From a virus, in the IMG/VR virus record IMGVR_UViG_3300036791_000129, positions 1 to 53,224 of that record: DNA of 53,224 nucleotides; one strand, 5' to 3'. Each line of letters opens with the position of its first letter. The first letter of the stretch is position 1. Shown in pieces: positions 529-52,115 of this stretch. The notes beneath the pieces are model-generated. The model ran no database searches. It saw only the letters and a list, made by a program, of their open reading frames with translations, and had not been told where the DNA came from. A program made the translations under genes and the position numbers.

Positions 529-563
529 CGCGCCAGAAGCCTATACGAAAGGCTCCTGGCGCG
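529..563 (-). promoter_or_regulatory. Intergenic hairpin built from the genome-wide GCGCCAG(G/A)AG motif
   Basis: cgcgccagaagcc-tatacgaaa-ggctcctggcgcg: 13-bp stem with one mismatch and a 9-nt loop. It lies between the stop of the 671..1447 gene and the ParB-methylase start. No U-tract follows on the transcribed strand. Confidence 0.4.
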
Positions 564-592
564 TCAAGCTGAATCGTGCTGTTAGTATAATT

Positions 593-626
593 CTAAACTT
601 TTCCGCCAATTGGCGGAAAAGTTTAG
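593..626. repeat. Perfect 34-bp palindrome CTAAACTTTTCCGCCAATTGGCGGAAAAGTTTAG (copy 1 of 2)
   Basis: Self-complementary over all 34 nt. An identical copy lies at 37687..37720. Confidence 0.9.
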
Positions 627-1447: not shown

Positions 1448-2588
1448 TTTTATTCCCCTTTCACAACTAATATTATTGCGCGATTTCGCGCGCCAGTAGC
1501 GTGCGCTTCTGGCGGTTGAATCGCAACTAGAATCTGCGCCTCACATGCACTTTTCATTTGACCGCCCTAGTTGCTTGGCGCACGCTATTGGCCAAGGGGA
1601 AAGCACATGTTGCACGATACTAGTTGAATCGCGCCAGTAGCGCACACCTTGCATAGTTATTGACGCCTTAACCTTGTGCATTGCTTGCAATGCGCCAGGG
1701 TTTAGTTGCGTCTAGTCAACTTCATCCTGGCGGCTGCCAGGATCGTAGGTGTGCGCCACTTTATATAGTTACGTTGTTATGTAACGCTGAATAGGCGTTA
1801 CGTAGTAACGTGATTATGTAAAGCTTACTCTTGGCGCGCCAGGAAGTAGGTCAGTTTCGCTGTCCTATTCCTGGTGCTAAATAATGAGACTAACCCGCTA
1901 GGCAGTTATGCCCTAGCGGGCCGTCCTGGCCCGTGACTGGTCCCCTGGCCCTATATACGGGCCAGGGTGCAGCTTAGGCCCGCTGTAAGCCCGTCCTAGG
2001 CCCGTTCCGGGCCATCCTGGCATCGTGACTCCCCTGTTGCCTGACCCACTAGCCCAGCACAACCACGGTGCTAGTCAAGTCAACCGTGGTCACATGCTCG
2101 CGAGCCAGGGGCCAACCATAGGTTGTAGAAAAATATCTTGCACACCTACCCAGGGTAGGCTATGGTTCCATTTACTACGTTGACTACACGAAATGATCTT
2201 TGACATTCGAATCTGACCAGGGAAGCAATCACGCGATGGTTGCCACTCTGCTGTTTGGTGCCGGTCTGCAAGTAGCCTTGCCATGTTGGGATGCGTTCCT
2301 CTTGTGCAATTAGATGATGCGAAAGCGATTGGATAGCCTGACAGCTTATGCGCGCCACACTGGCGCGCCCAATGGGCCGCACAAGCGGTCTTGCTTCGCG
2401 ATTTGGTTCCTTGGTTGGCATTCACACTCATTGAAGCTTTGAATCTGGTTTGCATCGGTAGAGCGTAGCGCAAGCTACATACTCGCCGATGATTCCGTTG
2501 TTTCCTTTCAATCTAGGGATTCGCGCTCATAGTAGGCTTGACCCGAACTGGCGCGATGTAATGCAACTAGTATGTTAACAACATACTA
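1448..2588. other. Gene-free divergent control region: candidate origin, operator array or structured RNA
   Basis: No credible ORF; the 2090..2473 and 2146..2421 ORFs have non-protein-like composition. Perfect hairpins lie at 1894..1920, 1918..1932, 1943..1967, 2062..2090, 2114..2167, 2350..2368 and 2568..2588. The 60-nt lines starting at 1921, 1981 and 2041 count 68%, 67% and 58% G+C, in a visibly AT-richer genome. Confidence 0.6.
1975..2020. repeat. Four tandem degenerate 11-12-bp units: taggcccgctg / taagcccgtcc / taggcccgttcc / gggccatcctgg
   Basis: Read directly from the sequence. The period is about one helical turn. A related tggcccgtgac lies at 1927. Confidence 0.6.
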
Positions 2589-2619
2589 ACTGTGACAAGT
2601 CAGTACCAATGCAGAGTTA
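2589..2619 (+). promoter_or_regulatory. Early promoter-like element 1: hairpin actg-TGACAAGT-cagt plus a GAGTTA box
   Basis: Member of a six-copy family. The loop hexamer TGACAA resembles -35 TTGACA. The box lies 15 nt downstream, and the ATG at 2648 follows 28 nt after the box. Confidence 0.5.
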
Positions 2620-2647
2620 AACCTTAATGAAACAAGGAAACTTAAAC

Positions 2648-2821
2648 ATGCGCAAATCACTGATGAAAATGCACGCGCAACTTGAAACCATGTTGTCGCG
2701 CGCACAGGAACTTACTGACAGCGAGAATGAAGATACTGCTAGCAAATACGATGATGTGGCAGGAGAACTTGATACAGCATTAGATGCTATCACTAATGCA
2801 ATGGATATTCTGAACGACTAA
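2648..2821 (+). CDS. Small acidic helical early protein (57 aa)
   Basis: The ORF track starts at 2627. I prefer ATG 2648 because caAGGAAActtaaacATG matches the leader of the other early genes. The protein is rich in D/E. Confidence 0.55.
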   Translation: MRKSLMKMHAQLETMLSRAQELTDSENEDTASKYDDVAGELDTALDAITNAMDILND

Positions 2822-2832
2822 ATGCAGAGTGG

Positions 2833-2852
2833 CGCGCCAGAAGCCTGGCGCG
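2833..2852 (+). terminator. GC-rich hairpin cgcgccag-aagc-ctggcgcg after the first early gene
   Basis: 8-bp perfect stem, followed only by TT, so the U-tract is weak. Confidence 0.4.
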
Positions 2853-2876
2853 TTAATGCACCCAACATAATGTTGG

Positions 2877-4500: not shown

Positions 4501-4530
4501 GCTTCTGGCCCGTGCAAGCGGGCCAGAAGC
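4501..4530 (+). terminator. Hairpin gcttctggcccg-tgcaag-cgggccagaagc
   Basis: 12-bp perfect stem directly after the stop at 4493, followed by acgTTTaa. Confidence 0.55.
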
Positions 4531-5584: not shown

Positions 5585-5616
5585 ACTCCTGGCGCTTGCG
5601 CGCCAGGAGTATTTTT
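5585..5616 (+). terminator. Rho-independent terminator actcctggcgc-ttgc-gcgccaggagt followed by ATTTTT
   Basis: 11-bp perfect stem made of both orientations of the over-represented motif, followed by a T-run. It lies directly after the stop at 5577. Confidence 0.75.
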
Positions 5617-7051: not shown

Positions 7052-7079
7052 GAAGCTACTGGCGCGGGCCAGTAGCTTC
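7052..7079 (+). terminator. Hairpin gaagctactggc-gcgg-gccagtagcttc
   Basis: 12-bp perfect stem 5 nt after the stop at 7047. No T-run; its 3' arm is shared with the 42-bp palindrome. Confidence 0.45.
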
Positions 7080-8311: not shown

Positions 8312-8346
8312 AATGCTCCTGGCCCGCGCCAGGAGCATTTCTTTTG
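8312..8346 (+). terminator. Rho-independent terminator aatgctcctggc-ccgc-gccaggagcatt followed by TCTTTTGTTTG
   Basis: 12-bp perfect stem plus a T-rich tail, at the convergent junction of the plus and minus transcription units. Confidence 0.75.
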
Positions 8347-9818: not shown

Positions 9819-12800
9819 TGACTCCTATCAGTTTCAAGTTGTTCTATTCTGGCAGACAATTCCTGAACTGCTTTCCATAGCACCGGCACAAGTTCACTAA
9901 CAGCGAGTCCCTTTGGCCCCTCGCCTTCATATACTCCGCCAAACTCAATATTGGATTTTTCCATCACATCCTTTATTTCCGCAGCATCAAATCCGCAATG
10001 AACTCGTTTCTGATCCGGTCCATCTTTCCAACGGAAAATAATCGGCTCAATATCTTGAATAGCTTTCAGACAAGATGGAAGTGGTTTGATATCTTGTTTC
10101 TGTGTTATATCAGAAGTTTGAATAACATTATTAATTGCCCATACAGAAGCCCAACGAATCACGCCATTACCTAACGGAATGCTGTTATCAGTAACAGCAG
10201 TCAATCCAGTGTTTATAGTTACAACACCAGTGTTGCGCACGATATTAAATGGAGCATCAATCGCCGTTCCACCAGCATCATGATAACGATAAATAGAAAA
10301 GTTAGCGCCAGTATCCGAGCCTGTTTCAGCATCAGTATTCATCAATGCAATTTGCCAACGATTAGCACCAGCGCGTTGGCCAACTATAGTAACAACCTGA
10401 CCAGCCGGAGCACTAAAAGCATGTTGCGATGATGTAGCTGCTGGCGCGGTATGGATCATCCCGCCAGGAGCAACTAACCAAGTTGACGCGCCATTAATAA
10501 AAACATTGAAGCTGCTGCTAGCACCGCCAATAACAGCATTGAGCGCATTAGAAGTAACACTAAATCCAAAATTGGTGGCGTAAAGCGCAATATGGCGTGA
10601 AAGATCAGTGGCACCACTTGGCGCTACAGCGCTACCAAAATTAACTCCACCATTAAATGTTGATGTAGTATTAACGATCAAATTTTGAGCACAAGTAGCA
10701 ACTGCATATATGCCTGCACCATCAGTCCAACATTCTATTGCGTAGTTCTGTGGCACTAGTAGAGTTCCACCACTAGTGCCAGCAATTGTTACTGTAAAGG
10801 CACCACTAGTAGAATTGAAAACTGACCAACGAGTAACAGTAGCAGTTGCTACTGGAAATGTAATAATAAGGTTAGCAGTAATAGCGCCATTAAGATAAAT
10901 CAGTTCAGTGCTGCATTGAGCAACCGTTAGTGTGATGTTAGTGCCACCTGCAATACTTACCATTGTGCGTGTAAGTAATCTATTTACAAAGTTTGTGGTT
11001 GCTATTTGTGTTGTATTAGTTCCTACTGCTGCCAATATTGAAAGTGGAACGCCAGTCAATGATGGTGATGCTAACGGCGCAGCACCTAACAAAGTCATTG
11101 TTTGCGCTGCTGTCATATCAATAGGTGCAGCCGCAGCACCAGTATTATTTCCCTTTATAGTATTCGCTGCCATTGTAGTTAGCATAGCATTACTAACGGC
11201 AGCATTAGTTATTGAGGCTACTACTGCGCCTGTTGTTGGACTTACAGTTAATCCTTGTCCTGCCGTAACACTAGATACACCAGCAGTTCCAGCCGTTACT
11301 GCCGCAGTAACGAAAGCAGTTGTTGCCAATTGTGTTGTATTGGTTCCTGGCGCTGCTGTTGGACCACTAACTATACCAGTTACGCCAAGTGTGCCAGGAA
11401 TTGTTACTCCTGTATTGCCGAACGTTAGTGAAACCACACCATTAGACACTGCATTCATTGTATTGGCGGCACTAACATTGAATCCATAAGTGGTGCTATA
11501 AAGCGCAATGTGATCTGAAATATCAATTGCAGTAGATGAAAATCCTGTGCCGCATGAAAAACCAGTTGTATTTGATAACGTTACTGTATTAGCATTAACC
11601 GTTAGTGTATTATTCGCGCCACTTTGTAGAATAATATTACTATTCGCAGCTCCATTACTAATCAACAATTGCTGATATGGAGTCCAAGTTTGATTGACAG
11701 TAAAGCCAGTTCCGGCTGATGGCGATACCGCAGTTAGCGTTACTGGATTAGTTGGTGCTGCTTGCACTGATGTAATGGAATTGTCTTGTGTAAATGTAGT
11801 TACTGCGCCTGCACTAATTGCCGTTACAGTATAGAAAAGACCAGAAGCATCATAAGCGCGATCGTTAACTGCCCAACCACTACCACCAGCAACTAACGTT
11901 GCAGGAGTAGTAGAAACATTGAATATCGCAGTAGATGGTAAAGTAATTTGTTGATCATTACCTGAACGATTAAATTGGAATCCAGATATACGATGTGTGC
12001 CAGGCGGCCAAGCTATAAAGTTGCCATTAACTGTAGTGGCACCAGTTCGCGTATTGACAGTAAAACAATAAAGACTGTTAGGAATAGTGCCAACATTAGT
12101 ATTGGTTCCGAAACCAATACCCTGATAAGACAACAATGCAAGGTTAGCAAGTGCGCTTGATGCACCATCTTGGCCCGGTCCATAAATCCAACCACCTGTT
12201 GCTCCTGGCCCGAACAACAAATGTTGTGGCGAGTTAATTGTTAACTGGCCAGTCATTGCGCCGCCAGTTAGAGAAAGTTTTGTTGCATCACTAGGATGCA
12301 CATGATCCTGGCGAGCGAATAATAATGATGTGCCTACAGTAGCAACACTATCAACAATTGGAGCAACAGTTGCAGCTTGTCCGCAATAATATGCAGTAGT
12401 TGCAACGTTAGTTGAATTATTATTTACTGCTGGCGTGGTTGCCGTAGTTGCTGCAAGTGAAGTGGTGCCCGTAGCAGTAATTGCGTTAGCACCATTAAAA
12501 GTCGCCGTATTAAGAAATGTTGAAGCGCCACTAACACTAATTCCACCAGTAAATGATGGCGATACTAACGGAGCATAACTAGAAAGTAAATTGGTAAATC
12601 CAGTGCCGCTAACTGCACCAGTTACAATTAAATTGCCAGGAATAGAAACACTAGTATTACTAACGGTTAGTGAAGCAACATTATTAGAAACAATGTTTAG
12701 TGTATTAGCTGCACTAACGTTAAATCCATAGCCGCTGCTTCCATAGAGCGAAATGCCACGAGTAAGATCGGTAGCGTTAGCTGCATAAACAGCACCAAAG

Positions 12801-14632: not shown

Positions 14633-16741
14633 TTAGAATGTTCCTCCATCGAAAACAATACCGTCAATGGAGCCGCCTGTTATGAGAACGTTATTTGCAT
14701 TCTGTGTTGCCATCGTTCCTAACCCAGTTATTGAAGTATTAGGAATAGTTGTTGAGGCAGTAAAGGCGTTAGTTCCACTAGCACTAACGAAACCAGTCAA
14801 TGTAGTTGCGCCGGTGCCGCCACGATTAACAGGAATAGTTGTTGCGGCCCACGCGCCAGATGTAACAGTTCCAAGATTTACAATTGAACTTTGACCAGCA
14901 TAGTTAGCATCAATATCTACACCAGTTGAACTAACATAAATTCGATTGGTCGTTCCTTTTACATAAAGTGCATTGCCTACTTTATAAAGACCATCACCAG
15001 GAGTAACAACACCCGCACTTGAAAATTGAATCCAACTAATGCCCGTAGTGCCTAATGTTCCGCCAGGATCAACGGTGCAAAGCCATCCAGTATCAGCGTT
15101 AGTTGTTCCTTCTTCAACAAATACATAAGCTGAAACTAACTCAGTCCAACTGTCTGTATCTGTAGGACGTGCCCACGCGCCAGCAGCAACAACATAAATA
15201 CCGTTAGCTGATGCTGTTGTTTGGTCTTTAACTAATACGCGATTACCAACAACTAACACTATACCATCTATTGTTTGCGTTCCAGAAAGTGTTATATTAG
15301 TTCCAGTAGTAGCAACCAAACATGCGGGTTTGCCACTTAATCCTTGCGCAGTCAAATCGACATAGTTACGAGTGGCAGCATCTTGTGGATTGACGGGATC
15401 AAGCAGATTTATAATATTATGAGAATTAAGATTTACATTGCCGCCAAACGATGCAGTGCCGGTCGCAGTTACGTTAGTAAAAGTGCCAATATTCGCTGTT
15501 GTCGAACCAATAGGCGGAGGCGAAGCAAACAACGTTGTAAAACCAGCACCACTAACTACACCGGGCACATTAAGCGTAACAGTAGCAGCAAGATTAACTG
15601 TCCCAAGTCCAATCGTCATTATACTCGCGCCAGCAACTACAAATTCATGCAGCGCGCCACTTGGAACAATATAATCTAAATTGTTATTAAAAACATTAAA
15701 ACCATATGTCGTGCTATAAAGTGCGATATGCCGCGATAGATCACTAATGCCGCCCGGAGCATTGATGCTGCCGAATGATTCTCCTGCATTGAACGTTACA
15801 AGTCCAGAAGCATTAGCTATAGGCAAACTAACGGTGCCAGTAAAAATTGGACTCGCAAGCGGCGCATATGGAGCCATAAGGTTAGTGAAGCCAGTTCCAC
15901 TAACTGCGCCACCAACACTAAAGTTGCCAACAACGTTTACGCCAGCAGCACCAGCAAAAGAATATCCGCCACTACCTGTTTCTGAAAAAACAACTGCGTT
16001 CGTTGCCGCAGCGCCAGGAGTAATAGTTAGTGCGTCGTTAGCAGCAGTTCCTACTGTCATTGCGCCAGTAAATGTAGAATTACCTGACGATCTTAAAATG
16101 GTTACAACAGCAGGTTGAAGCGTGCCTCCATCATTAAGCGGAACTAACGCAAAATCAGATCCAGTATTAGAACCACCTTCTGGTGTTGCGTTAGCTTGTA
16201 TTTGCCAACGACCAGCACTAGCAGTTTGCATACTAAAGGTGCGAACTGAACCTGCCGGGCCATTTACATTGCAATTAACTGGAGATGTATCAGTTCCGAT
16301 TGCAACATGACCAGTAAACTGAAAATTGGCAGTAGTAAGCGTGCCAGTCTGGGAAAATACGAATGCATTGGATCGTGTTGCCCCTGGCGTAACTGTCATT
16401 GCGTTGTTAGTCGAAGTACCAATAGTCAATGCGCCGGTTAATGTTCCGCCTGTAGTTGCTAATCTAGATGCATCACTAGGATGTACATGATCGCCACGCG
16501 ACCAAAAAGTTAAAGTGCCAGCATTGCCAACAGTTCCGCTATTACTAACGGGCGCGGTAGTGCTGGCCAAACCAGGACCAGCAATTGGCAGCACACCCGC
16601 TGCAAGTGTTCCACTAACTCCAGTTCCATAATATAAAATGTTTTCGCCTTCGTTAAAAGCTAACTCAGCATTCAACATTGTTGATGGGCCACCGGAACCA
16701 ATACCGGAAGCGCGCCGCTTAATTCTAACAGTGTCAACCAT
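14633..16741 (-). CDS. Tail-fibre protein (702 aa)
   Basis: Its N-terminus, MVDTVRIKRRASG...AELAFNE...LYYGTG...VLPIAGPG, is paralogous to that of the 1605-aa fibre. It has an RGDHVHPSD motif, one DLSRHIALYSTTYGFNV module and ends ...DGGTF. Confidence 0.75.
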   Translation of the reverse strand: MVDTVRIKRRASGIGSGGPSTMLNAELAFNEGENILYYGTGVSGTLAAGVLPIAGPGLASTTAPVSNSGTVGNAGTLTFWSRGDHVHPSDASRLATTGGTLTGALTIGTSTNNAMTVTPGATRSNAFVFSQTGTLTTANFQFTGHVAIGTDTSPVNCNVNGPAGSVRTFSMQTASAGRWQIQANATPEGGSNTGSDFALVPLNDGGTLQPAVVTILRSSGNSTFTGAMTVGTAANDALTITPGAAATNAVVFSETGSGGYSFAGAAGVNVVGNFSVGGAVSGTGFTNLMAPYAPLASPIFTGTVSLPIANASGLVTFNAGESFGSINAPGGISDLSRHIALYSTTYGFNVFNNNLDYIVPSGALHEFVVAGASIMTIGLGTVNLAATVTLNVPGVVSGAGFTTLFASPPPIGSTTANIGTFTNVTATGTASFGGNVNLNSHNIINLLDPVNPQDAATRNYVDLTAQGLSGKPACLVATTGTNITLSGTQTIDGIVLVVGNRVLVKDQTTASANGIYVVAAGAWARPTDTDSWTELVSAYVFVEEGTTNADTGWLCTVDPGGTLGTTGISWIQFSSAGVVTPGDGLYKVGNALYVKGTTNRIYVSSTGVDIDANYAGQSSIVNLGTVTSGAWAATTIPVNRGGTGATTLTGFVSASGTNAFTASTTIPNTSITGLGTMATQNANNVLITGGSIDGIVFDGGTF

Positions 16742-30736: not shown

Positions 30737-31237
30737 TTATGCTGCTAACGGATAGTGCATTTCAACAAGCGCAACGTTAACTGCTGTACCACCAAGCAAA
30801 TCAAACACTGATGCTGAAGCAGTTCTAAAGATAGAATGCAAAAGCAAAGTATTACCAGTTGAAATTGCCGATACTTGACCGTTAGCTAAAACATAAACTG
30901 GCGCACCATCAAGCAGACCAGTAGTTGCGCCACCAACTACACACCATGCGCGCCCGCGCGTTAGTGTTGATACCGCATCATATTGAGTATAACCACCACG
31001 CGATGCAATCAAATGATCATGCAACGAAATGCCAACAAAGTTAGTAGTGCCGCCAGGAGCAATGATAATTGAATTAGCGGCGGTTCTAGACGCAATGAGT
31101 CCGAAACCAATTGCCACGGCTCCACAAGCAAAGGTTTCAACATTATCTTCCATAGAATCACCTTTCATGCCCGGCATCGCTTGAGCATAAAAGTATGGTG
31201 CATTATATGGAGGCGAACCACTAATTGTTTGTGACAT
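30737..31237 (-). CDS. Capsid-associated (decoration-like) protein, 166 aa
   Basis: Beta-rich, G/A-rich ORF immediately upstream of the major capsid gene. Confidence 0.4.
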   Translation of the reverse strand: MSQTISGSPPYNAPYFYAQAMPGMKGDSMEDNVETFACGAVAIGFGLIASRTAANSIIIAPGGTTNFVGISLHDHLIASRGGYTQYDAVSTLTRGRAWCVVGGATTGLLDGAPVYVLANGQVSAISTGNTLLLHSIFRTASASVFDLLGGTAVNVALVEMHYPLAA

Positions 31238-36304: not shown

Positions 36305-37671
36305 CGATCATAATTAGAAACTGTGTTAGTTAGTTCAAGGAATGCACCGCTACTGGCGTCAACATAATCATCATGGTCCGATGATGGAAATGATTCCATT
36401 TCGCGTAAGTAATCACGATTCCACTCACCAGCTACAATATCCACATTGCCAGCTTGCCATTGGGCTGACAATGGTTCCGCGCGCGTTTTCTTTGGCCCGG
36501 TTTCTCTAATTGACTTAACTATAAACCCTGCCAAATAGTTAGTTAGTGAAACCACTTGATCTTTGCCAGCTTGGCCAGGGTCTTGCGGAATTATTGTGGT
36601 AACTCTGTTATAATTTGTACGATCTTGGCCAGCAATATTACGAATAACATCACGCACAATATTAGCAGGCTTCCGCAAACTAACACCATCAGCAATAACA
36701 AATCTCCCGTTTTCCCGTCTACCCATCAATATTGATGCCGTTGCGCTAGGTGACGGATTATCTTCACTTGGTTCTGTAGCTGCTAAATCCCAGCGTCTAA
36801 CCCAATGCCTAACATCAGTAGGCGCAGCTTCAACAGTTTGAGTTTTCAACGATGGAAAATACGAGCCTTTTTGCGGTTTGATTTTCCAGTTACCATTTAA
36901 CAAACGTTCGCGTTCCACGCGATTCAATGCTGTTAGATTGGCTTTATAACCCGGATCAGCATTCAACAGAATTTGGTTATCATCTAACGTTGCAGGAATG
37001 AAGGTAAATGACTTGGATTCCAAATTCGGAAAATCTAACAACAACTCCTGGCGCGAGCGCGCCCATATTAGTTTTGAATCCAAGCGTACAAAATATCTAA
37101 CTATCCCTGAACGTTCGGAAATTGGATAACCAGTCTCTTGGTCAATATACCAATCAACTAACTCAGCAACCCAACTATCAGCATCAGGATTACAGGTGGC
37201 ACGGATATAGGGAATAACTCCACAAGTAGAACGATTGCGCGATAACATATACCAAAACTGATGCGCAGTAAAATGTGTTAGTTCATCATAACCAATTAAC
37301 GGAATCTGCGAGCCTTGCCAATCGTTGACTGCTAACAACGTATGCAAGTGTGAAAATGTTATGGTAGCGCCAGATTCAAACGTCCATTGATGTTGTGGTG
37401 AGAACTTTGGCAATCCACCAATTTCACTATAAATCTGTGCGCTAGTATCAAACAAACCACCTTCATTGGTGATTTGCACTGCTTCACGGCGAAAAATCAC
37501 TGCACCATATTCAGGGTTATCAATATGCCGCGCCGCTTCTAACAGTAACGCATAAGTTTTACCGCCACCAGCAGCGCCACCATAAATAGCAATATCGGCC
37601 GCAGTCCCAATGAATTGGGATTGCGGGCCAGGCTGCGCCCGAAATGGTTCTAGCTGTTGGCCATCATACAT
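36283..37671 (-). CDS. terL: Terminase large subunit
   Basis: Walker A YGGAAGGGKTY, GYDELTHF (Walker B-like) and a C-terminal nuclease-type region with acidic residues. Upstream of the portal gene. Confidence 0.85.
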   Translation of the reverse strand: MYDGQQLEPFRAQPGPQSQFIGTAADIAIYGGAAGGGKTYALLLEAARHIDNPEYGAVIFRREAVQITNEGGLFDTSAQIYSEIGGLPKFSPQHQWTFESGATITFSHLHTLLAVNDWQGSQIPLIGYDELTHFTAHQFWYMLSRNRSTCGVIPYIRATCNPDADSWVAELVDWYIDQETGYPISERSGIVRYFVRLDSKLIWARSRQELLLDFPNLESKSFTFIPATLDDNQILLNADPGYKANLTALNRVERERLLNGNWKIKPQKGSYFPSLKTQTVEAAPTDVRHWVRRWDLAATEPSEDNPSPSATASILMGRRENGRFVIADGVSLRKPANIVRDVIRNIAGQDRTNYNRVTTIIPQDPGQAGKDQVVSLTNYLAGFIVKSIRETGPKKTRAEPLSAQWQAGNVDIVAGEWNRDYLREMESFPSSDHDDYVDASSGAFLELTNTVSNYDRWVALSS

Positions 37672-38552: not shown

Positions 38553-38885
38553 GGTTAGCACTCCTGGCGCGCGCCCCGCGCATTAGATGTTCTACCATTG
38601 TTCACGCTCCTGGCGAGTCTTACACTCGACCTTTGTAAGGAGAATTTTTACCCACCATAAGTCATTGATAACATAGCCAAAAAAAACCTTACACTCTTAC
38701 ACGAAATTCGGTACCCTTCTTCTTACTATATAATATATTTTAAAAAACCCCTCTTTTTTCTATATTGAAGTTTCTATCTATATAAACAATGTAATAGTGT
38801 AAGATAGAACAATTTTCTAAGCGATTTCAATGGGTTAGCGTCCTTACATCCCTCAAATTCTGAGATGTTTGTTTCGGTATCAATG

Positions 38886-38912
38886 TAATAAATGAACGCG
38901 CCAGGAGCGCGT
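38886..38912 (-). terminator. Hairpin acgcgc-tcctg-gcgcgt followed by UUCAUUUAUU, after the replication module
   Basis: 6-bp GC stem 4 nt downstream of the stop at 38916. T-rich on both sides. Confidence 0.45.
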
Positions 38913-40577: not shown

Positions 40578-41623
40578 TTTACATTCTCCCGATATATTGC
40601 TTGTTTTCCCATCTTGATACCATCTAAGATGGTTTGCATATCTTTCTTGAAATTACGCTGGCCACTCCAATCATTGCAAGAGTCATAAGCCGATTCAATC
40701 GCTTCAATTTCATCTAACACATTTTGACCAATTAGTTTACCTAACAAAATACAATAGCCAAACAGCATGTTGTGACGTTCACCAGTACCAAGTCTACCAA
40801 TTTTGAAATATAAGCTTTCAGAAATTCGCTTGGCACTTTGCTTGGTATATCTAACTTCTTCATCAATAATGCGGCGTGGTGGCGGCATAGTAACCGAAAC
40901 ACCTTTCGATTCACCACCATACCACAAAATACGTTGCTTTACCGGGTCAGTTATACCAACAAATATAGGTGCCGCAGTATAAATTGGTTGTATTGGATTG
41001 AACAACGTTAGATCAATAGCTGCGCCAGGAGCATCAGCTTTTAACCAAGTTTTCAATTCATAATTACTGACCGGACGATCGGCCCAAAAGAAAACGCGCA
41101 TTCTAATATCGGGCTTAATGCTATAACTAGCTGATGCAACAGCGAAACATTCAGCCACACTAAATGGCAACGGTAATTTCATTAATACATTATTCAAATG
41201 TGCTTGTAGATTCCATTTCCAATCTTCGTGATAACCCTCCATATCACCTAATTGATCATCATCAAATTTGGTAGATAATCCATCAATATCTAACGCAAAC
41301 CAGTTTTGATCTTCTAGAACTAACGTAGCTTCATCACCAACATATTTTCTAACTACATGTTTTCTATTATTCATATCTTTAACCCGCGCACGTAAGAAAC
41401 AGCAGCGCGGTTTAGCTAACATCCTTTGGCTTAGTAAAAACAGATCATGTAAATTCCATATTTCAACTTCATAAAAGTTGAAATATTTAACGCGATCATA
41501 TGCAACTTGATGGTCAGGAAAATTGCGTTTGGTCAACACCAAGTTCGGCGAGGCAGCTTGCGCGACTGTGACCATATTGGGCTTGACACTGGCGAAATTG
41601 TCACTATAAAGGGAGTCAGACAT
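40574..41623 (-). CDS. Replication initiation / primase-polymerase-like protein (tentative)
   Basis: NWFALDIDG resembles AEP motif I. It is translationally coupled to the helicase gene. The other AEP motifs are not clear. Confidence 0.3.
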   Translation of the reverse strand: MSDSLYSDNFASVKPNMVTVAQAASPNLVLTKRNFPDHQVAYDRVKYFNFYEVEIWNLHDLFLLSQRMLAKPRCCFLRARVKDMNNRKHVVRKYVGDEATLVLEDQNWFALDIDGLSTKFDDDQLGDMEGYHEDWKWNLQAHLNNVLMKLPLPFSVAECFAVASASYSIKPDIRMRVFFWADRPVSNYELKTWLKADAPGAAIDLTLFNPIQPIYTAAPIFVGITDPVKQRILWYGGESKGVSVTMPPPRRIIDEEVRYTKQSAKRISESLYFKIGRLGTGERHNMLFGYCILLGKLIGQNVLDEIEAIESAYDSCNDWSGQRNFKKDMQTILDGIKMGKQAIYRENVK

Positions 41624-41797: not shown

Positions 41798-41835
41798 CGC
41801 TCCTGGCGGTCTTTCCCTCGCCAGGAGCGATTTTT
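41798..41835 (+). terminator. Hairpin cgctcctggcg-gtctttccct-cgccaggagcg followed by ATTTTT
   Basis: 11-bp perfect stem made of the over-represented motif. The T-run is on the plus strand, but no plus-strand gene lies upstream. Confidence 0.4.
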
Positions 41836-42201: not shown

Positions 42202-42423
42202 CTAACGACTATATTTACCGCCGCGTTGTTTAGTTGATTTTTCCAGCGGAATGATTGGTTCGCGCCGTGGAAACAATTCACGATGCCTGCGAATTAGTCC
42301 AGCTAACGCGCCAGGAGTTAGCAATAATTGCTTGGCAATTTTTGGCGTGGTAATGCCATTATTCCAAAGTTGAATTGCTACTTTCAATTTGGCTTCCGAA
42401 TGCACTATCCTCTTGTCTGTCAT
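42202..42423 (-). CDS. GcrA-like HTH protein (73 aa)
   Basis: KLKVAIQLWNNGITTPKIAKQLLLTPGALAGLIRRH resembles the GcrA N-terminal pattern LW..G.S...IA..LG.T.NAV.G...R. Confidence 0.5.
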   Translation of the reverse strand: MTDKRIVHSEAKLKVAIQLWNNGITTPKIAKQLLLTPGALAGLIRRHRELFPRREPIIPLEKSTKQRGGKYSR

Positions 42424-42649: not shown

Positions 42650-44010
42650 GGCGCAATCTTTACTAACCGAACTGTATTTTCAAGTCGGCAAATCAGTGCC
42701 TCACGTCCACTTTGCAACATTTCTCCTGAAATCAAATCATATTCAGTAAGGAATTTATTGTCAGTAGTGATCAACACATCTACAGCATAGTTTTGTGCCT
42801 TCCACAAGAATACAAAGAAATCACCTTCACTGTTAGCATACACATCATAATATTCAGGATCGTAATCAACGACTAGACTAACGATATCACCAGCAAAGTT
42901 GCGATTTGATTCTGGACATAGTTGGCAGAGATTGCGCAACACATCGGCAATCGGGCGCGGATTCGTATCGTTAGTTTCAAACATTCCACACTTATAAACG
43001 CTACCGTAATCAAACAATGCATACCACCACAAGCCACGCACATTGCACTTCACGCACCGTAACAACGTCATCAAAGTATAATAAGCATCCCGGTGTCCGT
43101 TCCATCCTGCGTCGCCAGGAGCATTGCTTTCATTGTTATACAATGTAGGATGAAATTCAGTTAGCATAACTTCATGATTAATATATGCAGTCCACAAGCC
43201 ACCAATATAATCAGTTACGCTAGTGCCGTTACCTATAATATCAGGATTCCCTGGCGGATAATAATGTCCGTTTGCATATTGAATAATACCAGTAACTTCA
43301 ATCATGCGTGAGTCAAAATAACCAGTAATCCAGCCTTCGGGATGCGGCATTCCTGCCACCACACTAGGACTCATTGCTTGGTTATTATAGCCAAAGATTT
43401 GATGTTGAATTTCCATAGTCTGATCTACAGGAATCATTCCTTGCCCGAAATCAGTGTTTGGTTCATTGATTCCTTCTAGATAGCTAACATAACCACGGCG
43501 CCATAACTCAATCATTGTTGGCACATCGCCAACAGTGCCGTTAGCACCAATGCACATAGTTATATCAATGTGCGGAAATGCAGTGCGAATTTGTCCTAGC
43601 CAATTGGTCTGCATTTCAATTTTATTGGCGTAATGATATTCACGAATGCCAATGTGATAGGCATTATCGCCAACAATATAGCGCAAAGCTTTAATAACAG
43701 TTTCGGGACGATAATCTGCGGGCCAGGAGCCCCATGTATTGTGTTCGTCCAAACTTGAAAATGTGTTGACGCCTAACGTTTCAATCAACGTTGCAATTGG
43801 CTTGGCATCAACTAACGGTAAATCATTGTCTCCTTCATCAGTGTCCTCATTAAACACTTCTTGTTCAAGTTCAGTGGTTCGTTCTTCAAGTTTAGTAACT
43901 CGTTGTTCAATAGCACCAAATTCTTCTTCAAGTTCAGTGGTTCGTTCCTCAACTTGAACAACTCGTTGTTCAAGTGCATCAAATTCTTCGCGCGTGACTT
44001 TATCACTCAT
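42646..44010 (-). CDS. Coiled-coil protein with a clan GH-A-like glycoside hydrolase domain (454 aa)
   Basis: The N-terminus has a 21-aa tandem repeat (EERTTELEEEF...). YLEGINEPN is a candidate acid/base NEP motif and VMLTEFHP a candidate nucleophile Glu, in the order expected for a (beta/alpha)8 GH-A fold. Confidence 0.45.
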   Translation of the reverse strand: MSDKVTREEFDALEQRVVQVEERTTELEEEFGAIEQRVTKLEERTTELEQEVFNEDTDEGDNDLPLVDAKPIATLIETLGVNTFSSLDEHNTWGSWPADYRPETVIKALRYIVGDNAYHIGIREYHYANKIEMQTNWLGQIRTAFPHIDITMCIGANGTVGDVPTMIELWRRGYVSYLEGINEPNTDFGQGMIPVDQTMEIQHQIFGYNNQAMSPSVVAGMPHPEGWITGYFDSRMIEVTGIIQYANGHYYPPGNPDIIGNGTSVTDYIGGLWTAYINHEVMLTEFHPTLYNNESNAPGDAGWNGHRDAYYTLMTLLRCVKCNVRGLWWYALFDYGSVYKCGMFETNDTNPRPIADVLRNLCQLCPESNRNFAGDIVSLVVDYDPEYYDVYANSEGDFFVFLWKAQNYAVDVLITTDNKFLTEYDLISGEMLQSGREALICRLENTVRLVKIAP

Positions 44011-44560
44011 AGCTAATCTCCCCTATCCAGTTCCGTTTCACCATTTCAACAAAACAACGTCGGGTTATTTCGCAGTCAACATCTGCGGAGTGGGCGCCAA
44101 CAAAATTTTCCATAAACATATAGAAGTATAAATCTTGCAAGTTGTAACGTTCACCAAACTGTTGCAATGACACTTCAATGGTGCAAACCGCGCCAGGAGC
44201 AAACGGAAAACTCATATGTTTTCCGACTCTAACTAACTCCCAGTACAACACTGACTTGTCAAACATCAAGTTTTGGCCAACCAAAAATTTGCTACCGATA
44301 AAGAAATGATTGATTTTGCCGAGTGACTGAATGAACGGACTACAACCACTAACCATGCTGTCAGTGATGCCGTGAATTTTGGTGGCTTCTGGCGGGATTT
44401 TGATTGGCGGTTTGAATCGCATGTGTAACTTGTCAATTTCGTTAAGCTTCATATCTAACTTGATTGCTGACAATTCTAACAGATATGGCATCTGCTCCAC
44501 ACCCGCCGCTTCCGGCATTAGCAAACCTGACGTTTCAGTATCGAACACAATGATGGTCAT
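44003..44560 (-). CDS. DEDDh 3'-5' exonuclease (DnaQ/epsilon-like)
   Basis: ExoI IVFDTETSGL, ExoII GQNLMFDKSVL, ExoIII HSADVDCEI. Confidence 0.75.
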   Translation of the reverse strand: MTIIVFDTETSGLLMPEAAGVEQMPYLLELSAIKLDMKLNEIDKLHMRFKPPIKIPPEATKIHGITDSMVSGCSPFIQSLGKINHFFIGSKFLVGQNLMFDKSVLYWELVRVGKHMSFPFAPGAVCTIEVSLQQFGERYNLQDLYFYMFMENFVGAHSADVDCEITRRCFVEMVKRNWIGEISYE

Positions 44561-45743: not shown

Positions 45744-45768
45744 GCGCCAGGAGCAATATTCCTGGCGC
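45744..45768 (-). promoter_or_regulatory. Intergenic hairpin gcgccagga-gcaatat-tcctggcgc
   Basis: 9-bp perfect stem between the stop at 45781 and the start at 45719. Confidence 0.5.
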
Positions 45769-47140: not shown

Positions 47141-47484
47141 CTGTTGTTCTCCATGTTATATTCCACACCACACTTGTTGCAGATTCGTTTGAAAACCACT
47201 TCTTGTTTGTCAGATAATTTGTCTCTGGTTTTAGTTATTATGCTAGTTAGAAATTCAATTTCCCACTCAGTAAGAAACTTGTCATTGATGCATTCCTTAG
47301 CAGCGTCGCGCCAGGAGTAGATGAATGACGCCACGCCTACAATATCAGCCCATCTAACTGCGCCTTTATCCATAATATCCTTGGCTCGATTCAACGCGGC
47401 TAGTCGTTCACCATCGAATGTAGCACGAGTCGCTAACTCTAGGATCACGACTAGCTTTCGTTTCTGACTAGTATCAAGTGGCAT
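47137..47484 (-). CDS. Hypothetical protein (115 aa)
   Basis: ORF with an ATGA overlap to the next gene. Confidence 0.5.
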   Translation of the reverse strand: MPLDTSQKRKLVVILELATRATFDGERLAALNRAKDIMDKGAVRWADIVGVASFIYSWRDAAKECINDKFLTEWEIEFLTSIITKTRDKLSDKQEVVFKRICNKCGVEYNMENNR

Positions 47485-47685: not shown

Positions 47686-49143
47686 TTATTCTCCTGCATC
47701 TTCATACAACCAATCATGAATTGTTTTTGCTTTTCCGATTGTTAGTAGTTCACGAAACTGATCCGCTAAACTTTCCTTTGAGTTTAGCGCCCGCAAAATC
47801 CTACTGTCAATCTTTCCTCTAGTAATAATGTCGTGATAAGTAACTTTGTTAGTTTGTCCGATTCTATGGTTGCGATCTTCCGCTTGCAGTCTATCGGTAC
47901 TGCTCCAGCCATTACTATAAAATATCGTAGTGTTAGCTTCGTTCAAAGTTAATCCAGTGCCACCAGTCTGCACCGTTATAACTAACGCTTTGATGTTAGG
48001 ATCGCCACGCCAGGAGTTGATTTGTTCAAGTCTGTTTTCAATTGCGCCAGTAATACCAACGGATTGCATTCCATTTCTAGTTAGTTCTTCAACTACTAAC
48101 CAAACATCGCGAATGAAACGACAGAATACGATTACCTTGCCACTTGTTGATTCCGCCAACTCACTAACCAATGCAGCGCGATTGCTTGGGATATCTTTCT
48201 TCACATCTTCGGCAGAAAGATGCCCACACAATACTTGCTGTAATCGCATCAACTTGGTTAATGCCATGGTAGTATCTACCAACACACCTTTTTCAATTTC
48301 ATATAACATTTCTTCTTCAAGTATATTATAAATAGTTTCTTGTTCTCTGGTCATTTCAACATGATGTTGAACATAAACTTTATCTGGTAAGTCTAAGCAT
48401 TCATGCTTGCGCTTTTGATACGCATACGGTGCAATTTTAGCGGCTAACATTGCTTGATTTTGATAACCAATAATCTTGCGATTTTCAAAACCGCCCATAC
48501 GACAATACATACCTTTGAATGACGTGACACCACGATGACCAATAATAACCCAATTCAAAAACTTGAATTGCGCGTATAGATTCTCTAACCCTTCTTGCGC
48601 TTCCGTGCCAGTAGCAATCCGCCTAAACTTAGCATATTGACCATAAGAAATTGCATATTTAGTTCTGATAGCAGACCAAGATTTGATTTTATGACTTTCA
48701 TCAATAGCAAAGTATATTTTGCTCCTGGCGCGCAGGAGTCGGTATAAATAACTTTGACCCTTCTTGCTGCTCAAAGCTTCAATGTTCATCAGGAACACTA
48801 ACACTTTGCCAGATGCAATAATATCGCGCGTGTGCTGCTCTTGTCTGGCTTCATCGTTACGGGATTTGTAAACTTGAATTTGCCAACGTTGATAGTTAGG
48901 CGGACCATGTAATTCAAACTGCTCTTGCCAATTTTCATGCACTTGGTTTGGTGCCAAAATAACTGCGCAATTGATCAAGTCACGTTCGATTAAGTTAGTG
49001 ATTTCATCAACAATGATCTTTGACTTACCAGTGCCTTGTTCTAGAAAAAATGCAAACTCAGAACAACCCCACGCGCGTTCTAACGCTTCGCGTTGGTGTT
49101 CATAGGGATGCGTTGTATATACTAACTCTACTGTGGTTCGCAT
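47686..49143 (-). CDS. SNF2-family DNA helicase/translocase
   Basis: Motif I LEQGTGKSK, motif II DESHKIK, motif VI QAEDRNHRIGQ. Confidence 0.8.
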   Translation of the reverse strand: MRTTVELVYTTHPYEHQREALERAWGCSEFAFFLEQGTGKSKIIVDEITNLIERDLINCAVILAPNQVHENWQEQFELHGPPNYQRWQIQVYKSRNDEARQEQHTRDIIASGKVLVFLMNIEALSSKKGQSYLYRLLRARSKIYFAIDESHKIKSWSAIRTKYAISYGQYAKFRRIATGTEAQEGLENLYAQFKFLNWVIIGHRGVTSFKGMYCRMGGFENRKIIGYQNQAMLAAKIAPYAYQKRKHECLDLPDKVYVQHHVEMTREQETIYNILEEEMLYEIEKGVLVDTTMALTKLMRLQQVLCGHLSAEDVKKDIPSNRAALVSELAESTSGKVIVFCRFIRDVWLVVEELTRNGMQSVGITGAIENRLEQINSWRGDPNIKALVITVQTGGTGLTLNEANTTIFYSNGWSSTDRLQAEDRNHRIGQTNKVTYHDIITRGKIDSRILRALNSKESLADQFRELLTIGKAKTIHDWLYEDAGE

Positions 49144-49313
49144 ATTATTTCCTTTTCCCTGCTATTGTTTCCACTTACTCTACCTGAATTTATGTGTAGT
49201 AGTGGAGAGTTATCGGATACCTATGAGCTTGGCTAGTCCAAGTATCCATAAAATTCCCAGCCCCATTGATGCCTGTCCAAGAAAGTACGGAAGCCAGAAG
49301 CAGGTCCACTCGT

Positions 49314-52115
49314 TCATAGCTGTTTCCACTTCTCTATGTATAACCTACGTTTACCATTAGACATTGCGCCACGCAACAGGAACCAATCATTGGCATTCTG
49401 TTTAGTTAGTGGTTCACCTAATCGAGCATAGTATTTGCGTGGCACCGTGGCCGCGATTACGTCAGTATCATCTTCTAACATCAATGTTAACCACTTATCG
49501 TCAGCAACGCGCATATTGCCGCGCTCAATTAGAAATTGAGTTTCGTTCAAGGAACGAATTTTCCAGCTAATGACTCTACCTAATATTGTATAGCTACCTT
49601 CAATATCATCAATATCAGCAATATTCCACAACTTGTTATAAATACCATACTTCTTAGGATCAATGTATAGATCAGCGAATCGACGCCGCGCTTCAAATAC
49701 GTTATCGTAAGGTGTGGTTCCTTCCGCCAGCAGCTTGCATTGACGTTCTGTAAATCCAATGTTTTGTTCTCGACGTTGCAATATAGCTTTAGCTAACACA
49801 TCGCCAACACCTTTGATGTTAGTCAAGCCACCAATTAGTTTGTTATCCTTAACTGACCAACTGTATTCGCTTAACTGCGGATCATATGGCACAAATTCAA
49901 TACCGATACGATCTAATTCACGCAAATATTGTTTGATTGATAATGCGTCTTGCACATGCTTTAACGTAGCTAACGCAAACTGCAATGGATAGTGTGCTTT
50001 TAGAACCATGCACCAATAACTAACCGTGGCATAGGCAACAGAGTGTGATAAATTGAAAGCGTAATCGCCAGCAGAATTAACAGTTTCCCATATGCTCCTG
50101 GCGGTCAGTTCGTCAATGTTGTTCGCTAACGCACCAGTCTTGAATTTATCCCAAAACTGCGCATCAAAATATTCCATCCCAAGTTTCTTGTTGATGCCAC
50201 GCCGAAACAACGTCACATCTTCCCAATTCATCAAACCAATATCGCGCAGAATCCGCAACATCTGCTCTTGAAATACAATCAACCCATAAGTGTCGCGTGT
50301 GATATCAGCTAACATATCATGCAGCAATTCAACTGGCTTCTGCTGCATTCTCCTGGCGCACCACTCATAAGCCGCACCACTAATCAATGGTCCGGGTCTA
50401 GCTAATGCAGTTAGTGCTGCTAAATCAGTAAACCGATCTACTGCTACTTTGCGCGTTAAACCTTGTAATGCTTGACCCTCAAACTGGAACACTCCACAAT
50501 ATAGTTTGTCGCGTAATACTTTGAATGCTGCCGCATCATCTAACTGGTGCGCCAGGAGCGTGCTATGATTCCAACCAATTTGTTGCAAACAATCCGCAAT
50601 GATAGTTAGTGTGCGCAAACCTAAACAATCAACTTTCATTAAGTTGATGTGTTCAGCATCATATTTGTCAACATGCACTGTATTGTTGCGCACATCTCTA
50701 GCGACATAATGGTTAATAGGATCGTTAGTAATAACAACGCCAGCAGCATGGGTACTATGATGCCGTGCATGGGCTTCTAACCTTTCTGCTACTTTGATTG
50801 CCGGAAATTTCTTTATAAACGCTTGACCAATTTCAGTATCACTAAAAGTATCGGCAACGCAATTATCAGCGCGGTAGTCACCTTCCGCGCGCTTGATAAT
50901 TGAATTTGCAATTTGTTCGGCATCCCAACGTGGAATCCTAACAACTTTGGCGGTTTCTGCAATTGCTGACCTACCTTTGTACCTGGTTACAGTACCTAAC
51001 CGCGCCACTTTGTCCGCACCATATTTGTCAATCAAATAACGAAATACTAAATCTCTCTTATTGTCTTGAAAATCAATATCAATATCAGGCAAGTCACTAC
51101 GAGTAACATCAATAAACCGTTCGAATATGAGATGATGCGGAATAGGGTCAATATCGGTAATGCCCAACAGATAACATACAAGACTGCCACAACTAGAACC
51201 ACGCGCTGGGCCAACCAACATTTGCTGTTTGGCATACTGCACCATATCCGCAATAACTTTGAAGTAGTCAGCAAATCCCTTGTGTTCAATCAAAGTTAGT
51301 TCGTGTTGCATACGCTCTAAGTAAATGCCTTCAAGTTTGATTCCACGAATTGTTGCGCCAATAGTGCATAGTTCAAGCAAACTACGTTGCTCAAACGATT
51401 TGATGTTAGTTGCTTGCGCCAGTGTGGCGTTGCATTCTTCTGCTAGTTGATCTGCCAACGCAAAGTTTGCGTTAGTCAGATATCGGCAATCATGCATTAG
51501 TTGAAATCTATCCATGATGTGCATGGCACTAGGACGATTGAATGCATTCCTACCTAACAACACTTCATAAATATAACGATTTTCTGGCCGAATCATAAAA
51601 TTATCCGATACTGGAATCGCAGGACGATTCAACAATACTGGATTCGTTGCTGGATGCGCTTCTATTATTACTTTGCTTGGTAACTGCGCATTGTATTGGC
51701 CAATGCCGCTATTGCCTGACAAGATCAATACGTCAGCAGACAATGATTCAAGTTTGCTAATTGGTAGTCGCGGCACATAATGCGCGTTAGCAGTAGCTTC
51801 TTCAACTGCGCTATAAATCTCACGCAAACCGGCATCACTCCTGGCCAGGAGTGCTAACCAATAAAATTGTGGTCGTTTTGGTTTATCTGCAATATCACTA
51901 ACGAATGCTAATTCAACACCAAATATTGGTTTGATAGCAGCCGTATTGCAATGTTGATTCCACTGGATATGACCAAAAGTGGAACTACGATCTGTTAGTG
52001 CCGCACACTTACAACCTTGCGATTGTAAGTGTGCGACTACTTGTTCAATTGGTCCGTAAACCGCACGAAAACTGTATTCACTACGTATCTTTAGTTGTGT
52101 TAGCATTGCTGTCAC
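49314..52115 (-). CDS. dnaE: DNA polymerase III alpha subunit (DnaE-type, 933 aa)
   Basis: N-terminal PHP-type start LKIRSEYSFRAVYGP...ALTDRSSTFGH. Catalytic block GPARGSSCGSLVCYLLGITDIDPIPHHLIFERFIDVTRSDLPDIDIDF. Confidence 0.85.
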   Translation of the reverse strand: MTAMLTQLKIRSEYSFRAVYGPIEQVVAHLQSQGCKCAALTDRSSTFGHIQWNQHCNTAAIKPIFGVELAFVSDIADKPKRPQFYWLALLARSDAGLREIYSAVEEATANAHYVPRLPISKLESLSADVLILSGNSGIGQYNAQLPSKVIIEAHPATNPVLLNRPAIPVSDNFMIRPENRYIYEVLLGRNAFNRPSAMHIMDRFQLMHDCRYLTNANFALADQLAEECNATLAQATNIKSFEQRSLLELCTIGATIRGIKLEGIYLERMQHELTLIEHKGFADYFKVIADMVQYAKQQMLVGPARGSSCGSLVCYLLGITDIDPIPHHLIFERFIDVTRSDLPDIDIDFQDNKRDLVFRYLIDKYGADKVARLGTVTRYKGRSAIAETAKVVRIPRWDAEQIANSIIKRAEGDYRADNCVADTFSDTEIGQAFIKKFPAIKVAERLEAHARHHSTHAAGVVITNDPINHYVARDVRNNTVHVDKYDAEHINLMKVDCLGLRTLTIIADCLQQIGWNHSTLLAHQLDDAAAFKVLRDKLYCGVFQFEGQALQGLTRKVAVDRFTDLAALTALARPGPLISGAAYEWCARRMQQKPVELLHDMLADITRDTYGLIVFQEQMLRILRDIGLMNWEDVTLFRRGINKKLGMEYFDAQFWDKFKTGALANNIDELTARSIWETVNSAGDYAFNLSHSVAYATVSYWCMVLKAHYPLQFALATLKHVQDALSIKQYLRELDRIGIEFVPYDPQLSEYSWSVKDNKLIGGLTNIKGVGDVLAKAILQRREQNIGFTERQCKLLAEGTTPYDNVFEARRRFADLYIDPKKYGIYNKLWNIADIDDIEGSYTILGRVISWKIRSLNETQFLIERGNMRVADDKWLTLMLEDDTDVIAATVPRKYYARLGEPLTKQNANDWFLLRGAMSNGKRRLYIEKWKQL

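Follow-up and report, generated by a model that had tools for sequence, protein, structure and literature searches.

A short polar DNA word aimed at the packaging region of an uncultured 53-kb phage clade and its possible Chi-like role

Introduction

Some phages that carry many Chi sites lack a recombination module of their own (Zheng et al. 2025, PMC12315714; on Chi-rich phages, see also Bobay et al. 2013, as cited in PMC12315714). In Escherichia coli phage LLS, Pseudomonas aeruginosa phage MD8, and phage P1, the Chi of the host is the commonest octamer, with one copy per 1.2 to 1.9 kb; its orientation is 20:3 in LLS and 32:0 in MD8, and the copies are clustered at the end where RecBCD enters. 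Chi on the top strand is active for right-end entry, so that it aims at the entry end (PMC12315714). The Chi word of MD8 is that of Pseudomonas, GCTGGCGC (PMC12315714), given as 5'-GCTGGCGC-3' for Pseudomonas syringae (Pavankumar et al. 2018, PMC5959072). In phages that exploit RecBCD, Chi has a recognizable signature: the word is asymmetric and over-represented, turns over between relatives, occurs in all reading frames, and has its copies near and aimed at one place. Here, we describe a 9-mer, CTCCTGGCG (reverse complement CGCCAGGAG), in the virus record IMGVR_UViG_3300036791_000129 from IMG/VR, where the whole stretch analyzed, positions 1 to 53,224, is referred to as the window.

Like Chi in LLS, MD8, and P1, this word is short and asymmetric, is the commonest oligomer at about one copy per 1 to 2 kb, is found in all frames, and is not explained by codon usage. 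Its copies point 5'→3' towards, and cluster near, what would be the entry end of the enzyme, its sites turn over between relatives, and the phage encodes no recognized recombinase or RecBCD inhibitor among the proteins scanned (see below). Unlike theirs, it is a new word of 9 nt with one free position, its copies are re-used as hairpin arms, and its polarity is two-sided about a point beside terS/terL rather than one-sided at a cos end. The genome also differs from those of the lambdoid Chi-rich phages, being myovirus-like, about 53 kb long, and equipped with a DnaE. Written as GCT-C-CTGGCG-C, the word contains CTGGCGC, a contiguous match to seven of the eight bases of P. syringae Chi; it shares with that site and with Escherichia coli Chi (5'-GCTGGTGG-3') an asymmetric, pyrimidine-then-G-rich composition, and its N = G variant gives GCTGGCG. 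Unlike in P. syringae Chi, C rather than G is preferred before CTGGCG, and a further CT two bases upstream is required.

Other short words invite comparison. DNA uptake sequences (DUS) of the Neisseriaceae (GCCGTCTGAA dialects) and uptake signal sequences (USS) of the Pasteurellaceae (AAGTGCGGT/ACAAGCGGT) are similar to the present word in length and density, likewise occur in all frames, and also form terminators from inverted pairs, but differ from it in sequence; unlike them, the present word is strongly polar around a phage landmark and, among the matches listed, restricted to one phage clade. The FtsK orienting polar sequences (KOPS; GGGNAGGG) and SpoIIIE recognition sequences (SRS) are likewise over-represented polar words with one free position that converge on one site, although no FtsK- or SpoIIIE-like protein was recognized among the proteins scanned here and the convergence is beside viral packaging genes, not at a chromosomal dif. 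Finally, the stoperators of Cluster A mycobacteriophages are also asymmetric, clade-specific sites found by the dozen genome-wide, within and between genes. Stoperator orientation follows the direction of transcription, whereas the orientation of the present word flips between co-directional genes and ignores gene strand.

Results

An exhaustive search found 29 exact copies of the 9-mer, 13 as CTCCTGGCG and 16 as CGCCAGGAG on the plus strand, which makes it the commonest 9-mer of the window (~0.55 copies per kb) and the most over-represented oligomer of the genome. These are the numbers of the original prediction, a reading of the sequence that preceded this analysis, and its coordinates agree with ours except for one copy, which starts at 50350 rather than 50351. 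Its claim of massive over-representation holds as well: a dinucleotide shuffle yields 0.07 copies and a Markov-3 model 0.49, the latter corresponding to a ~59-fold excess. Nineteen of the copies are genic and use all three reading frames (the examples given in the prediction are correct: RQE for terL, ARR for the DnaE gene, and PGA, here extended to APGA, for the baseplate gene). A synonymous-codon shuffle within genes, which keeps all proteins, gives 1.26 genic copies (~15-fold fewer than observed), and a codon-order shuffle gives 0.30. Since the excess beats every null, including the protein-preserving codon shuffle that the prediction had named as its own check, the word is selected at the level of DNA rather than protein, as had been proposed. 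Eleven of them share the xCCWGGx frame, where they encode (A/T)PG(A/G/V/D) in both orientations because the word is near-palindromic, and the other eight lie in the remaining frames. The 10 copies outside genes fall in noncoding DNA that makes up 6.3% of the window.

Aligned copies give the consensus cg-CGCCAGGAG-(C/T)-a (consensus cgCGCCAGGAGCa). Counts of single-base neighbors show that only the seventh position varies, the others being essentially fixed: CGCCAG-N-AG is found 53 times (N = G in 29, C in 11, A in 7, and T in 6), and the shorter GCCAG-N-AG 75 times. The true unit is therefore CT-N-CTGGCG (53 copies), with N mostly C and a consensus of about GCTCCTGGCGC; CTNCTGGCG is ~16-fold above its Markov-3 expectation. 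That the word contains CCWGG and AGGAG had been noted. The central G of CCAGG is degenerate, so that CCWGG is not an invariant core and a connection to Dcm or very-short-patch repair is rejected; both motifs are incidental, AGGAG being only part of the word. Neither is the word a HIP1-like palindrome: CGCCAGGAG differs from its reverse complement, and the two orientations do not behave alike. In the literature, a search for the word brought up primers and unrelated genes only. Separately, ACTAAC, CGTTAG, and CCGTTAG are also over-represented genome-wide (CCGTTAG, 34 observed versus 8 expected), which is probably a codon-pair effect of minus-strand coding sequence.

Single copies of the word are strongly polar. 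Read as 5'-CTNCTGGCG-3', they aim at one point from both sides, whatever the strand of the gene in which they lie; with terL placed on the top strand, copies upstream of the point carry CTCCTGGCG and copies downstream carry CGCCAGGAG, the point itself lying ~1.1 kb before terL. In the window, this polarity switch falls at 38616..38898, between the last rightward and the first leftward copy, in AT-rich and mostly noncoding DNA ~0.55 to 0.85 kb upstream of a putative terS (37746-38060, a weak candidate) and ~1.1 kb upstream of terL (36283-37671). No obvious strand bias had been seen in the original prediction, and absence of such bias, if true, would argue against a Chi-like role; the statement is correct for the total of 13:16 but not locally. 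The same orientation flip is present in the window and 22 related loci. When distinct aligned positions were counted once, the two orientations stood at 13:1 in the head and packaging genes and at 1:13 in the VapE and primase genes (Fisher p = 1e-5). Among single copies no more than 6 kb from the switch, pooled from the window and from four relatives whose sequences were put together from overlapping loci, the ratio was 20:3 on the left and 0:16 on the right (p = 2.6e-8), and many wrong-way copies near the switch are the second arm of a hairpin pair. The copies are also densest here, at 1.2 per kb from 38.9 to 50.5 kb and 0.83 per kb from 32.7 to 38.6 kb compared with 0.32 elsewhere, which supports the earlier remark that they crowd at 37-51 kb. 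The "leftward" domain extends ~20 kb, to about window position 5.6 kb, where the orientation flips.

The genes flanking the switch on both sides are co-directional, all of them being on one strand. On the left side, the word keeps its DNA orientation even in opposite-strand genes (21:11 versus 35:13); the polarity signal is therefore in the DNA, not in the transcript. Codon usage for Pro, Gly, and Ala shows no difference between the two modules in the direction needed to explain the orientation, and on this ground and that of the opposite-strand genes we reject an RNA-level or expression-module origin of the polarity. The whole word is needed: CTNCTGGCG stands at 36:17 overall and 19:5 within 10 kb, as opposed to 29:33 for CTGGCG without the CTN prefix. 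GC skew tracks gene strand only, with no shift at the switch and no origin signal. When the switch region was aligned across relatives, AT richness was all that they had in common, and no element was clearly conserved.

Within the clade, this word emerges from an unbiased scan for polar 8-mers. Applied to the nearest outgroup, a sister phage (L018, IMGVR_UViG_3300045242_000161; terL identity 61%, GC 0.52), which is without CTCCTGGCG, the same scan recovers a different word, GGCAGTTG, present in 11 copies in 21 kb (2324-21128) versus 0.57 expected. Nine of the 11 copies aim at the same spot ~1.1 kb upstream of terL, so that L018 has a second, different polar word in the same architecture.

The individual sites are much less stable than the word. 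By mapping of orthologous codons, the one deeply conserved site is that of terL (codons 207-209, CGC CAG GAG), which is kept in 14 of 17 relatives and held at 9/9 bases while flanking codons vary both synonymously and nonsynonymously; outgroups that encode RQE at this site use AGA CAG GAA or CGA CAA GAA. The other sites mostly vary from one relative to the next. Those in the VapE gene, for example, are at nine different aligned positions among the relatives, all in the same orientation, and the window has none there. Since the sites turn over while their density persists, the density is kept by continuing selection and not by inheritance of fixed sites. Site turnover, together with the DNA-level polarity and the clade-wide rank of the word described next, goes beyond what had been predicted.

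Dozens of related contigs of ~52-55 kb are found in IMG/VR. In all relatives that are at least 71% identical in terL or at least 53% in DnaE, the word ranks first or nearly so among the 9-mers, with 0.25-1.3 copies per kb. More distant relatives have zero or near-zero copies irrespective of their GC content (0.31-0.69). A scan of the viral collection for inverted word pairs returned 69 loci, in which every word-dense locus shares genes with this clade and the remainder are lone chance pairs in GC-rich contigs. A scan of 185,579 species genomes for inverted pairs, a pattern that a polar host Chi would seldom yield, gave among the 120 matches listed only isolated pairs, mostly GC-rich and none of them dense. 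In a metagenome scan with longer arms, 116 of the 120 matches listed were GC-rich chance pairs; of the four low-GC matches, three were word-dense and all of these were members of the phage clade, and the fourth (L427) had the matched pair only and matches no viral locus. The search for word-dense bacteria that had been suggested as a route to the host gave, among the 120 genome and 120 metagenome stretches listed, no dense bacterial locus, a negative of little weight, and the dense loci all belong to the phage clade.

The window is a complete circular map of 53,097 bp with an arbitrary start point: its ends carry an exact terminal direct repeat of 127 nt (1-127 and 53098-53224), an assembler overlap which shows that the assembly is circular or permuted. 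Between 8.7 and 53 kb, the minus strand carries nearly all genes. Scans of ~35 window proteins against Pfam and PHROGs assigned, besides terL, a portal (34838-36304), a major head protein (29724-30713), a baseplate protein (18252-19733), a VapE-type helicase (38916-40577), a primase-like protein (40574-41623), an RNase_T-like exonuclease (44003-44560), an SNF2 helicase (47686-49143), a DnaE-like polymerase (49314-52115), and an MT-A70 methyltransferase (52250-53152, minus strand; PF05063, PHROG 359). No recombinase or RecBCD inhibitor was recognized among these ~35 proteins, and many open reading frames (ORFs) had no family match. A tRNA scan of the window found none. A megablast search of 23 kb against the INPHARED phages gave no match, an exact-protein look-up led to a single sequencing run (SRR11833939), and the nearest cultured phages by terL protein are Rhizobium phages at 52% identity, from which we draw no inference about the host. 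GGAG or AGGA precedes about half of the start codons, and we therefore reject a host from the Bacteroidota, where the Shine-Dalgarno sequence is missing.

Many copies of the word are built into hairpins. The wider family GCCAG-N-AG/CGCCAG-N-AG spans 532..51851 and includes 11 inverted pairs with arms no more than 40 nt apart. The leftmost hairpin, GCGCCAGAAGCC...GGCTCCTGGCGC, is intergenic (528..565; -30.8 kcal/mol on the minus strand) and has the exact copy at 553..561 (+, CTCCTGGCG) as one arm, and a second intergenic hairpin, at 1489..1515, pairs the variants GCCAGTAG and CTTCTGGC. The best four terminator-like matches in 1-10 kb are word-built hairpins. They include (i) 5585..5610 (+), with a T tail, downstream of gene 5185-5577, whose left and right arms are exact copies at 5586..5594 (+) and 5601..5609 (-, CTCCTGGCG on the minus strand); (ii) 7052..7079, made of the variants CTACTGGC and GCCAGTAG; and (iii) 8312..8339 (+), with a T tail, between the convergent genes 7134-8276 (+) and 8370-8597 (-), with the exact copy at 8327..8335 (-) as its right arm. 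Further along, a word pair forms an in-gene hairpin at 23081-23115 (arms 23082..23090, +, and 23106..23114, -) within gene 22897-24717, another forms the hairpin 41797-41830, and an imperfect hairpin lies at 45744-45770 with one arm at 45745..45753 (-). In the hairpin at 41797-41830, the left arm (41800..41808, +) is a wrong-way copy accounted for by its pairing with the right arm (41819..41827, -). The four intergenic hairpins of the original prediction are real, as is its 18-bp palindrome CACTCCTGGCCAGGAGTG inside the polymerase gene, although the latter lies at 51836..51853 and not at 51834-51851.

The remaining exact copies are mostly single and genic. Far from the switch, they are found at 10462..10470 (-) in a 1605-aa tail gene (APGG; the partner is a variant, CTGCTGGC, at 10438), at 16012..16020 (-) in gene 14633-16741 (TPGA), at 18356..18364 (+) in the baseplate gene (APGA), and at 31051..31059 (-) in gene 30737-31237 (APGG), where the relative L017 has a site at the same aligned position. 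Approaching the switch from the left, copies directed towards it occur at 32773..32781 (+) in gene 32442-33518 (SARS), which is conserved in L001, L003, L005, and L007, at 34921..34929 (+) in the portal gene (APGV), and at 38561..38569 (+) at the start of gene 38106-38561; the conserved terL copy (RQE) is at 37045..37053 (+), and the copy at 38607..38615 (+) is the last before the switch. The first past it, at 38899..38907 (-), points back at the switch, and so do those at 41023..41031 (-) in the primase-like gene (APGA) and at 42309..42317 (-), which is intergenic. Further right, minus-strand copies lie at 43113..43121 in gene 42646-44010 (APGD), at 44191..44199 in the exonuclease gene (APGA; same aligned position in L009), at 47309..47317 in gene 47137-47484 (YSWR), and at 48008..48016 in the SNF2 helicase gene (NSWR), which also has a plus-strand copy at 48722..48730 (RARS) directed away from the switch. 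The DnaE-like polymerase gene contains copies at 50095..50103 (+, TARS), 50350..50358 (+, CARR), and 50550..50558 (-, LLAH), the last at the same aligned position in L009.

The word also enters candidate ribozymes. Twister-P5 matches above the Rfam gathering score of 37.6 are present at 2823-2892 (+, 53.7 bits) and 5084-5156 (+, 40.2 bits), and one stem of the first is a word hairpin, CGCGCCAG-AAGC-CTGGCGCG, at 2830..2856 (+). Sub-threshold matches to twister-P1 lie at 2555-2622 (+) and 4532-4587 (+), with 42.1 and 32.1 bits against a gathering score of 67.2; the hairpin GCTTCTGGCCCG...CGGGCCAGAAGC (4501..4530) is directly 5' of the one at 4532-4587. Up to four candidate twister ribozymes thus occupy intergenic gaps of the early plus-strand gene block, which looks like ribozyme processing of the phage's early polycistronic RNA. 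Six Twister-P5 matches were found in relatives, three in L242 (3809-3873, 5480-5540, and 6080-6154, -), two in L222 (2772-2846 and 3076-3142, +), and one in L236 (2108-2166, +), and variable helices of several twister matches are built from the over-represented word.

Two further repeated elements were seen alongside these hairpins. A second over-represented word, CGTATATAC, has 11-15 copies per 7-21 kb in L010, L014, L016, and L017, where it forms hairpin stems; it also lies inside the twisters L222 2772-2846 and L242 6080-6154, but in the window it does not stand out. The other element, a perfect palindrome of 34 bp, CTAAACTTTTCCGCCAATTGGCGGAAAAGTTTAG, occurs twice in the window, at 593-626, adjoining the word hairpin 528-565, and at 37687-37720 in the terS-terL gap, where it ends 16 nt short of the start codon of terL. 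Its role could be that of an operator or a stem-loop.

Discussion

The account best supported by these observations makes the 9-mer a new polar word of Chi-like type, carried by a clade of uncultured phages. Its reader may be a host double-strand-end helicase-nuclease of the RecBCD/AddAB type, for which the word would be a control sequence; we regard this as a serious possibility that falls a little short of probable. Sites of pac or cos usually lie just upstream of terS/terL. The switch occupies that very position, and we infer from it that the switch marks the genome ends or pac/cos, the alternative being a replication origin. The original prediction had offered a Chi-like or other recognition word as its second choice, and it is this choice that fits best; overall, its interpretation is supported in part, the DNA-level recognition word standing and the preferred uptake sequence not.

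The proposed role would work as follows. Phage DNA would be linear when packaged or injected, with its ends near the packaging genes at ~38.6-38.9 kb. The host enzyme would enter at these ends and degrade inward until it met the word in its active orientation, that is, with the 5'→3' direction of the word towards the entry end. The word would then attenuate degradation and promote RecA-dependent recombination, which could serve either circularization via terminal redundancy or the formation of concatemers, so that the phage would gain protection, recombination, or both. Selection would keep many correctly oriented copies near both ends, while individual sites could come and go. Stems that need GC-rich inverted repeats, such as those of the terminator-like hairpins and twister helices, would tend to be built from the favored word; a genome under pressure to carry the word would therefore acquire wrong-way partner copies and an intergenic enrichment.

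Several points weigh against this proposal. The polarity holds strictly only out to ~6-12 kb from the switch, being weak at +6 to +18 kb, and because the pooled contigs are mutually related, the pooled counts are not fully independent, which makes the distinct-position test the safer one. The 127-nt terminal repeat is an assembler overlap, so the genome ends are placed by the neighboring genes. Known Chi words (E. coli, P. syringae, Haemophilus influenzae, Bacillus subtilis, Lactococcus lactis, and Staphylococcus aureus) are not enriched in the window (1.1-2.1-fold), and the exact Pseudomonas Chi GCTGGCGC has just seven copies, without polarity. Experimentally defined Chi sites are 5-8 nt long, and the present word has nine bases with one free position. 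None of the 120 inverted-pair matches listed for bacterial genomes was dense in the word, though the pattern is ill-suited to a polar Chi. Finally, many phage ORFs have no assigned function and may include a reader or a recombinase, and either a phage-encoded reader or a bidirectional origin would give the same polarity.

Of these alternatives, a phage-encoded machine is unlikely but survives best. The SNF2 or VapE helicase, the exonuclease, the terminase, or an unannotated protein could read the word, whose copies would be KOPS-like polar guide or loading sites leading towards the packaging region, with word and reader co-evolving. The one free position recalls KOPS, word-dense DNA belongs to this clade only (among the matches listed), the presence of the word sharply follows phage phylogeny, and a sister lineage with another word in the same geometry is also what co-evolution of a protein and its site would produce. 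A shared host would, however, restrict the word to the clade equally well, the ~35 proteins scanned include no FtsK/SpoIIIE-type domain and no candidate sequence-specific reader, and we know of no phage system of this word-guided kind. In its most specific form, which we consider slightly less likely still, the word and GGCAGTTG would not be borrowed Chi sites but virus-encoded polar guidance that steers a phage translocase or nuclease to the packaging-initiation region. Such guidance would be a viral analogue of KOPS/FtsK or Chi/RecBCD, in which word and reader co-evolve and switch between sister lineages.

That the polarity reflects replication is improbable. The switch would in that case be a bidirectional origin. 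On the template of the lagging strand, which corresponds to the sense of the leading strand, the word 5'-CGCCAGNAG-3' would show primase where to start, or it would act as a replication-oriented Chi of the opposite sense. The point from which CGCCAGGAG diverges adjoins the primase and helicase genes, the spacing of 1-3 kb resembles that of Okazaki fragments, and ~70-75% of the single copies fit a circle of two replichores with the second flip near window position 5.6 kb. The GC skew, however, does not shift at the switch, polarity and density fall off with distance and are not sustained over entire replichores, and the word in that sense resembles no known Chi; known primase recognition sites are, moreover, only ~3 nt long.

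A purely structural origin, in which the word is the preferred stem of duplicating RNA hairpins (terminators, processing sites, or ribozyme helices) and the genic singles are decayed half-sites or chance matches, is very doubtful. It would accommodate the 10 of 29 copies in ~6% of noncoding DNA, the 11 inverted pairs, the word-built terminators of 1-10 kb, and the twister stems. It leaves aside the 19 genic copies, of which 1.3 would be expected with the proteins kept, and the terL site held at 9/9 bases amid varying flanks. Partnerless single copies are polar and keep their orientation across relatives, and a symmetric hairpin function cannot yield DNA polarity. As the sole explanation, it is largely refuted.

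There is very little to recommend a modification or restriction target, whether for the MT-A70 methyltransferase of the phage or for evasion of enzymes that need head-to-head sites. The methyltransferase gene is present, the variant CGCCAGCAG contains CAGCAG, and Type III and Type ISP enzymes do depend on site orientation; restriction targets are normally depleted, however, and this word is enriched 16-59-fold, nothing ties the methyltransferase to it, and methylation gives no reason for polarity. Least likely of all is that the phage carries the DNA uptake sequence of a host with natural competence, for although a word of ~9-11 nt at ~0.55 copies per kb in all frames, with equal strand totals and terminator-forming inverted pairs, is what such a sequence would look like, the consensus cgCGCCAGGAGCa has no similarity to DUS or USS dialects on direct comparison, the dense loci among the stretches listed are those of the phage clade and not of bacteria, the two orientations are not interspersed but strongly polar and clustered around a landmark of the phage, and in the sister phage the same geometry is built from another word.

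Only a few bacteria have an experimentally established Chi, and for most Proteobacteria computational searches are unsuccessful (PMC8022716). If the word is indeed Chi-like, this phage discloses what is recognized by the double-strand-break repair enzyme of a host that has not been cultured or identified, and the word would be a probe for host prediction, pointing to genomes with a polarized excess of CTNCTGGCG. The strategy of carrying many Chi sites and no recombination module would then extend from lambdoid phages and P1 to unrelated tailed phages of ~53 kb, in a new, two-sided form centered on the packaging region. The different word of the sister lineage, placed in the same geometry, is a natural experiment on word swapping, and if the reader is instead phage-encoded, the word would represent a new kind of viral genome-architecture signal.

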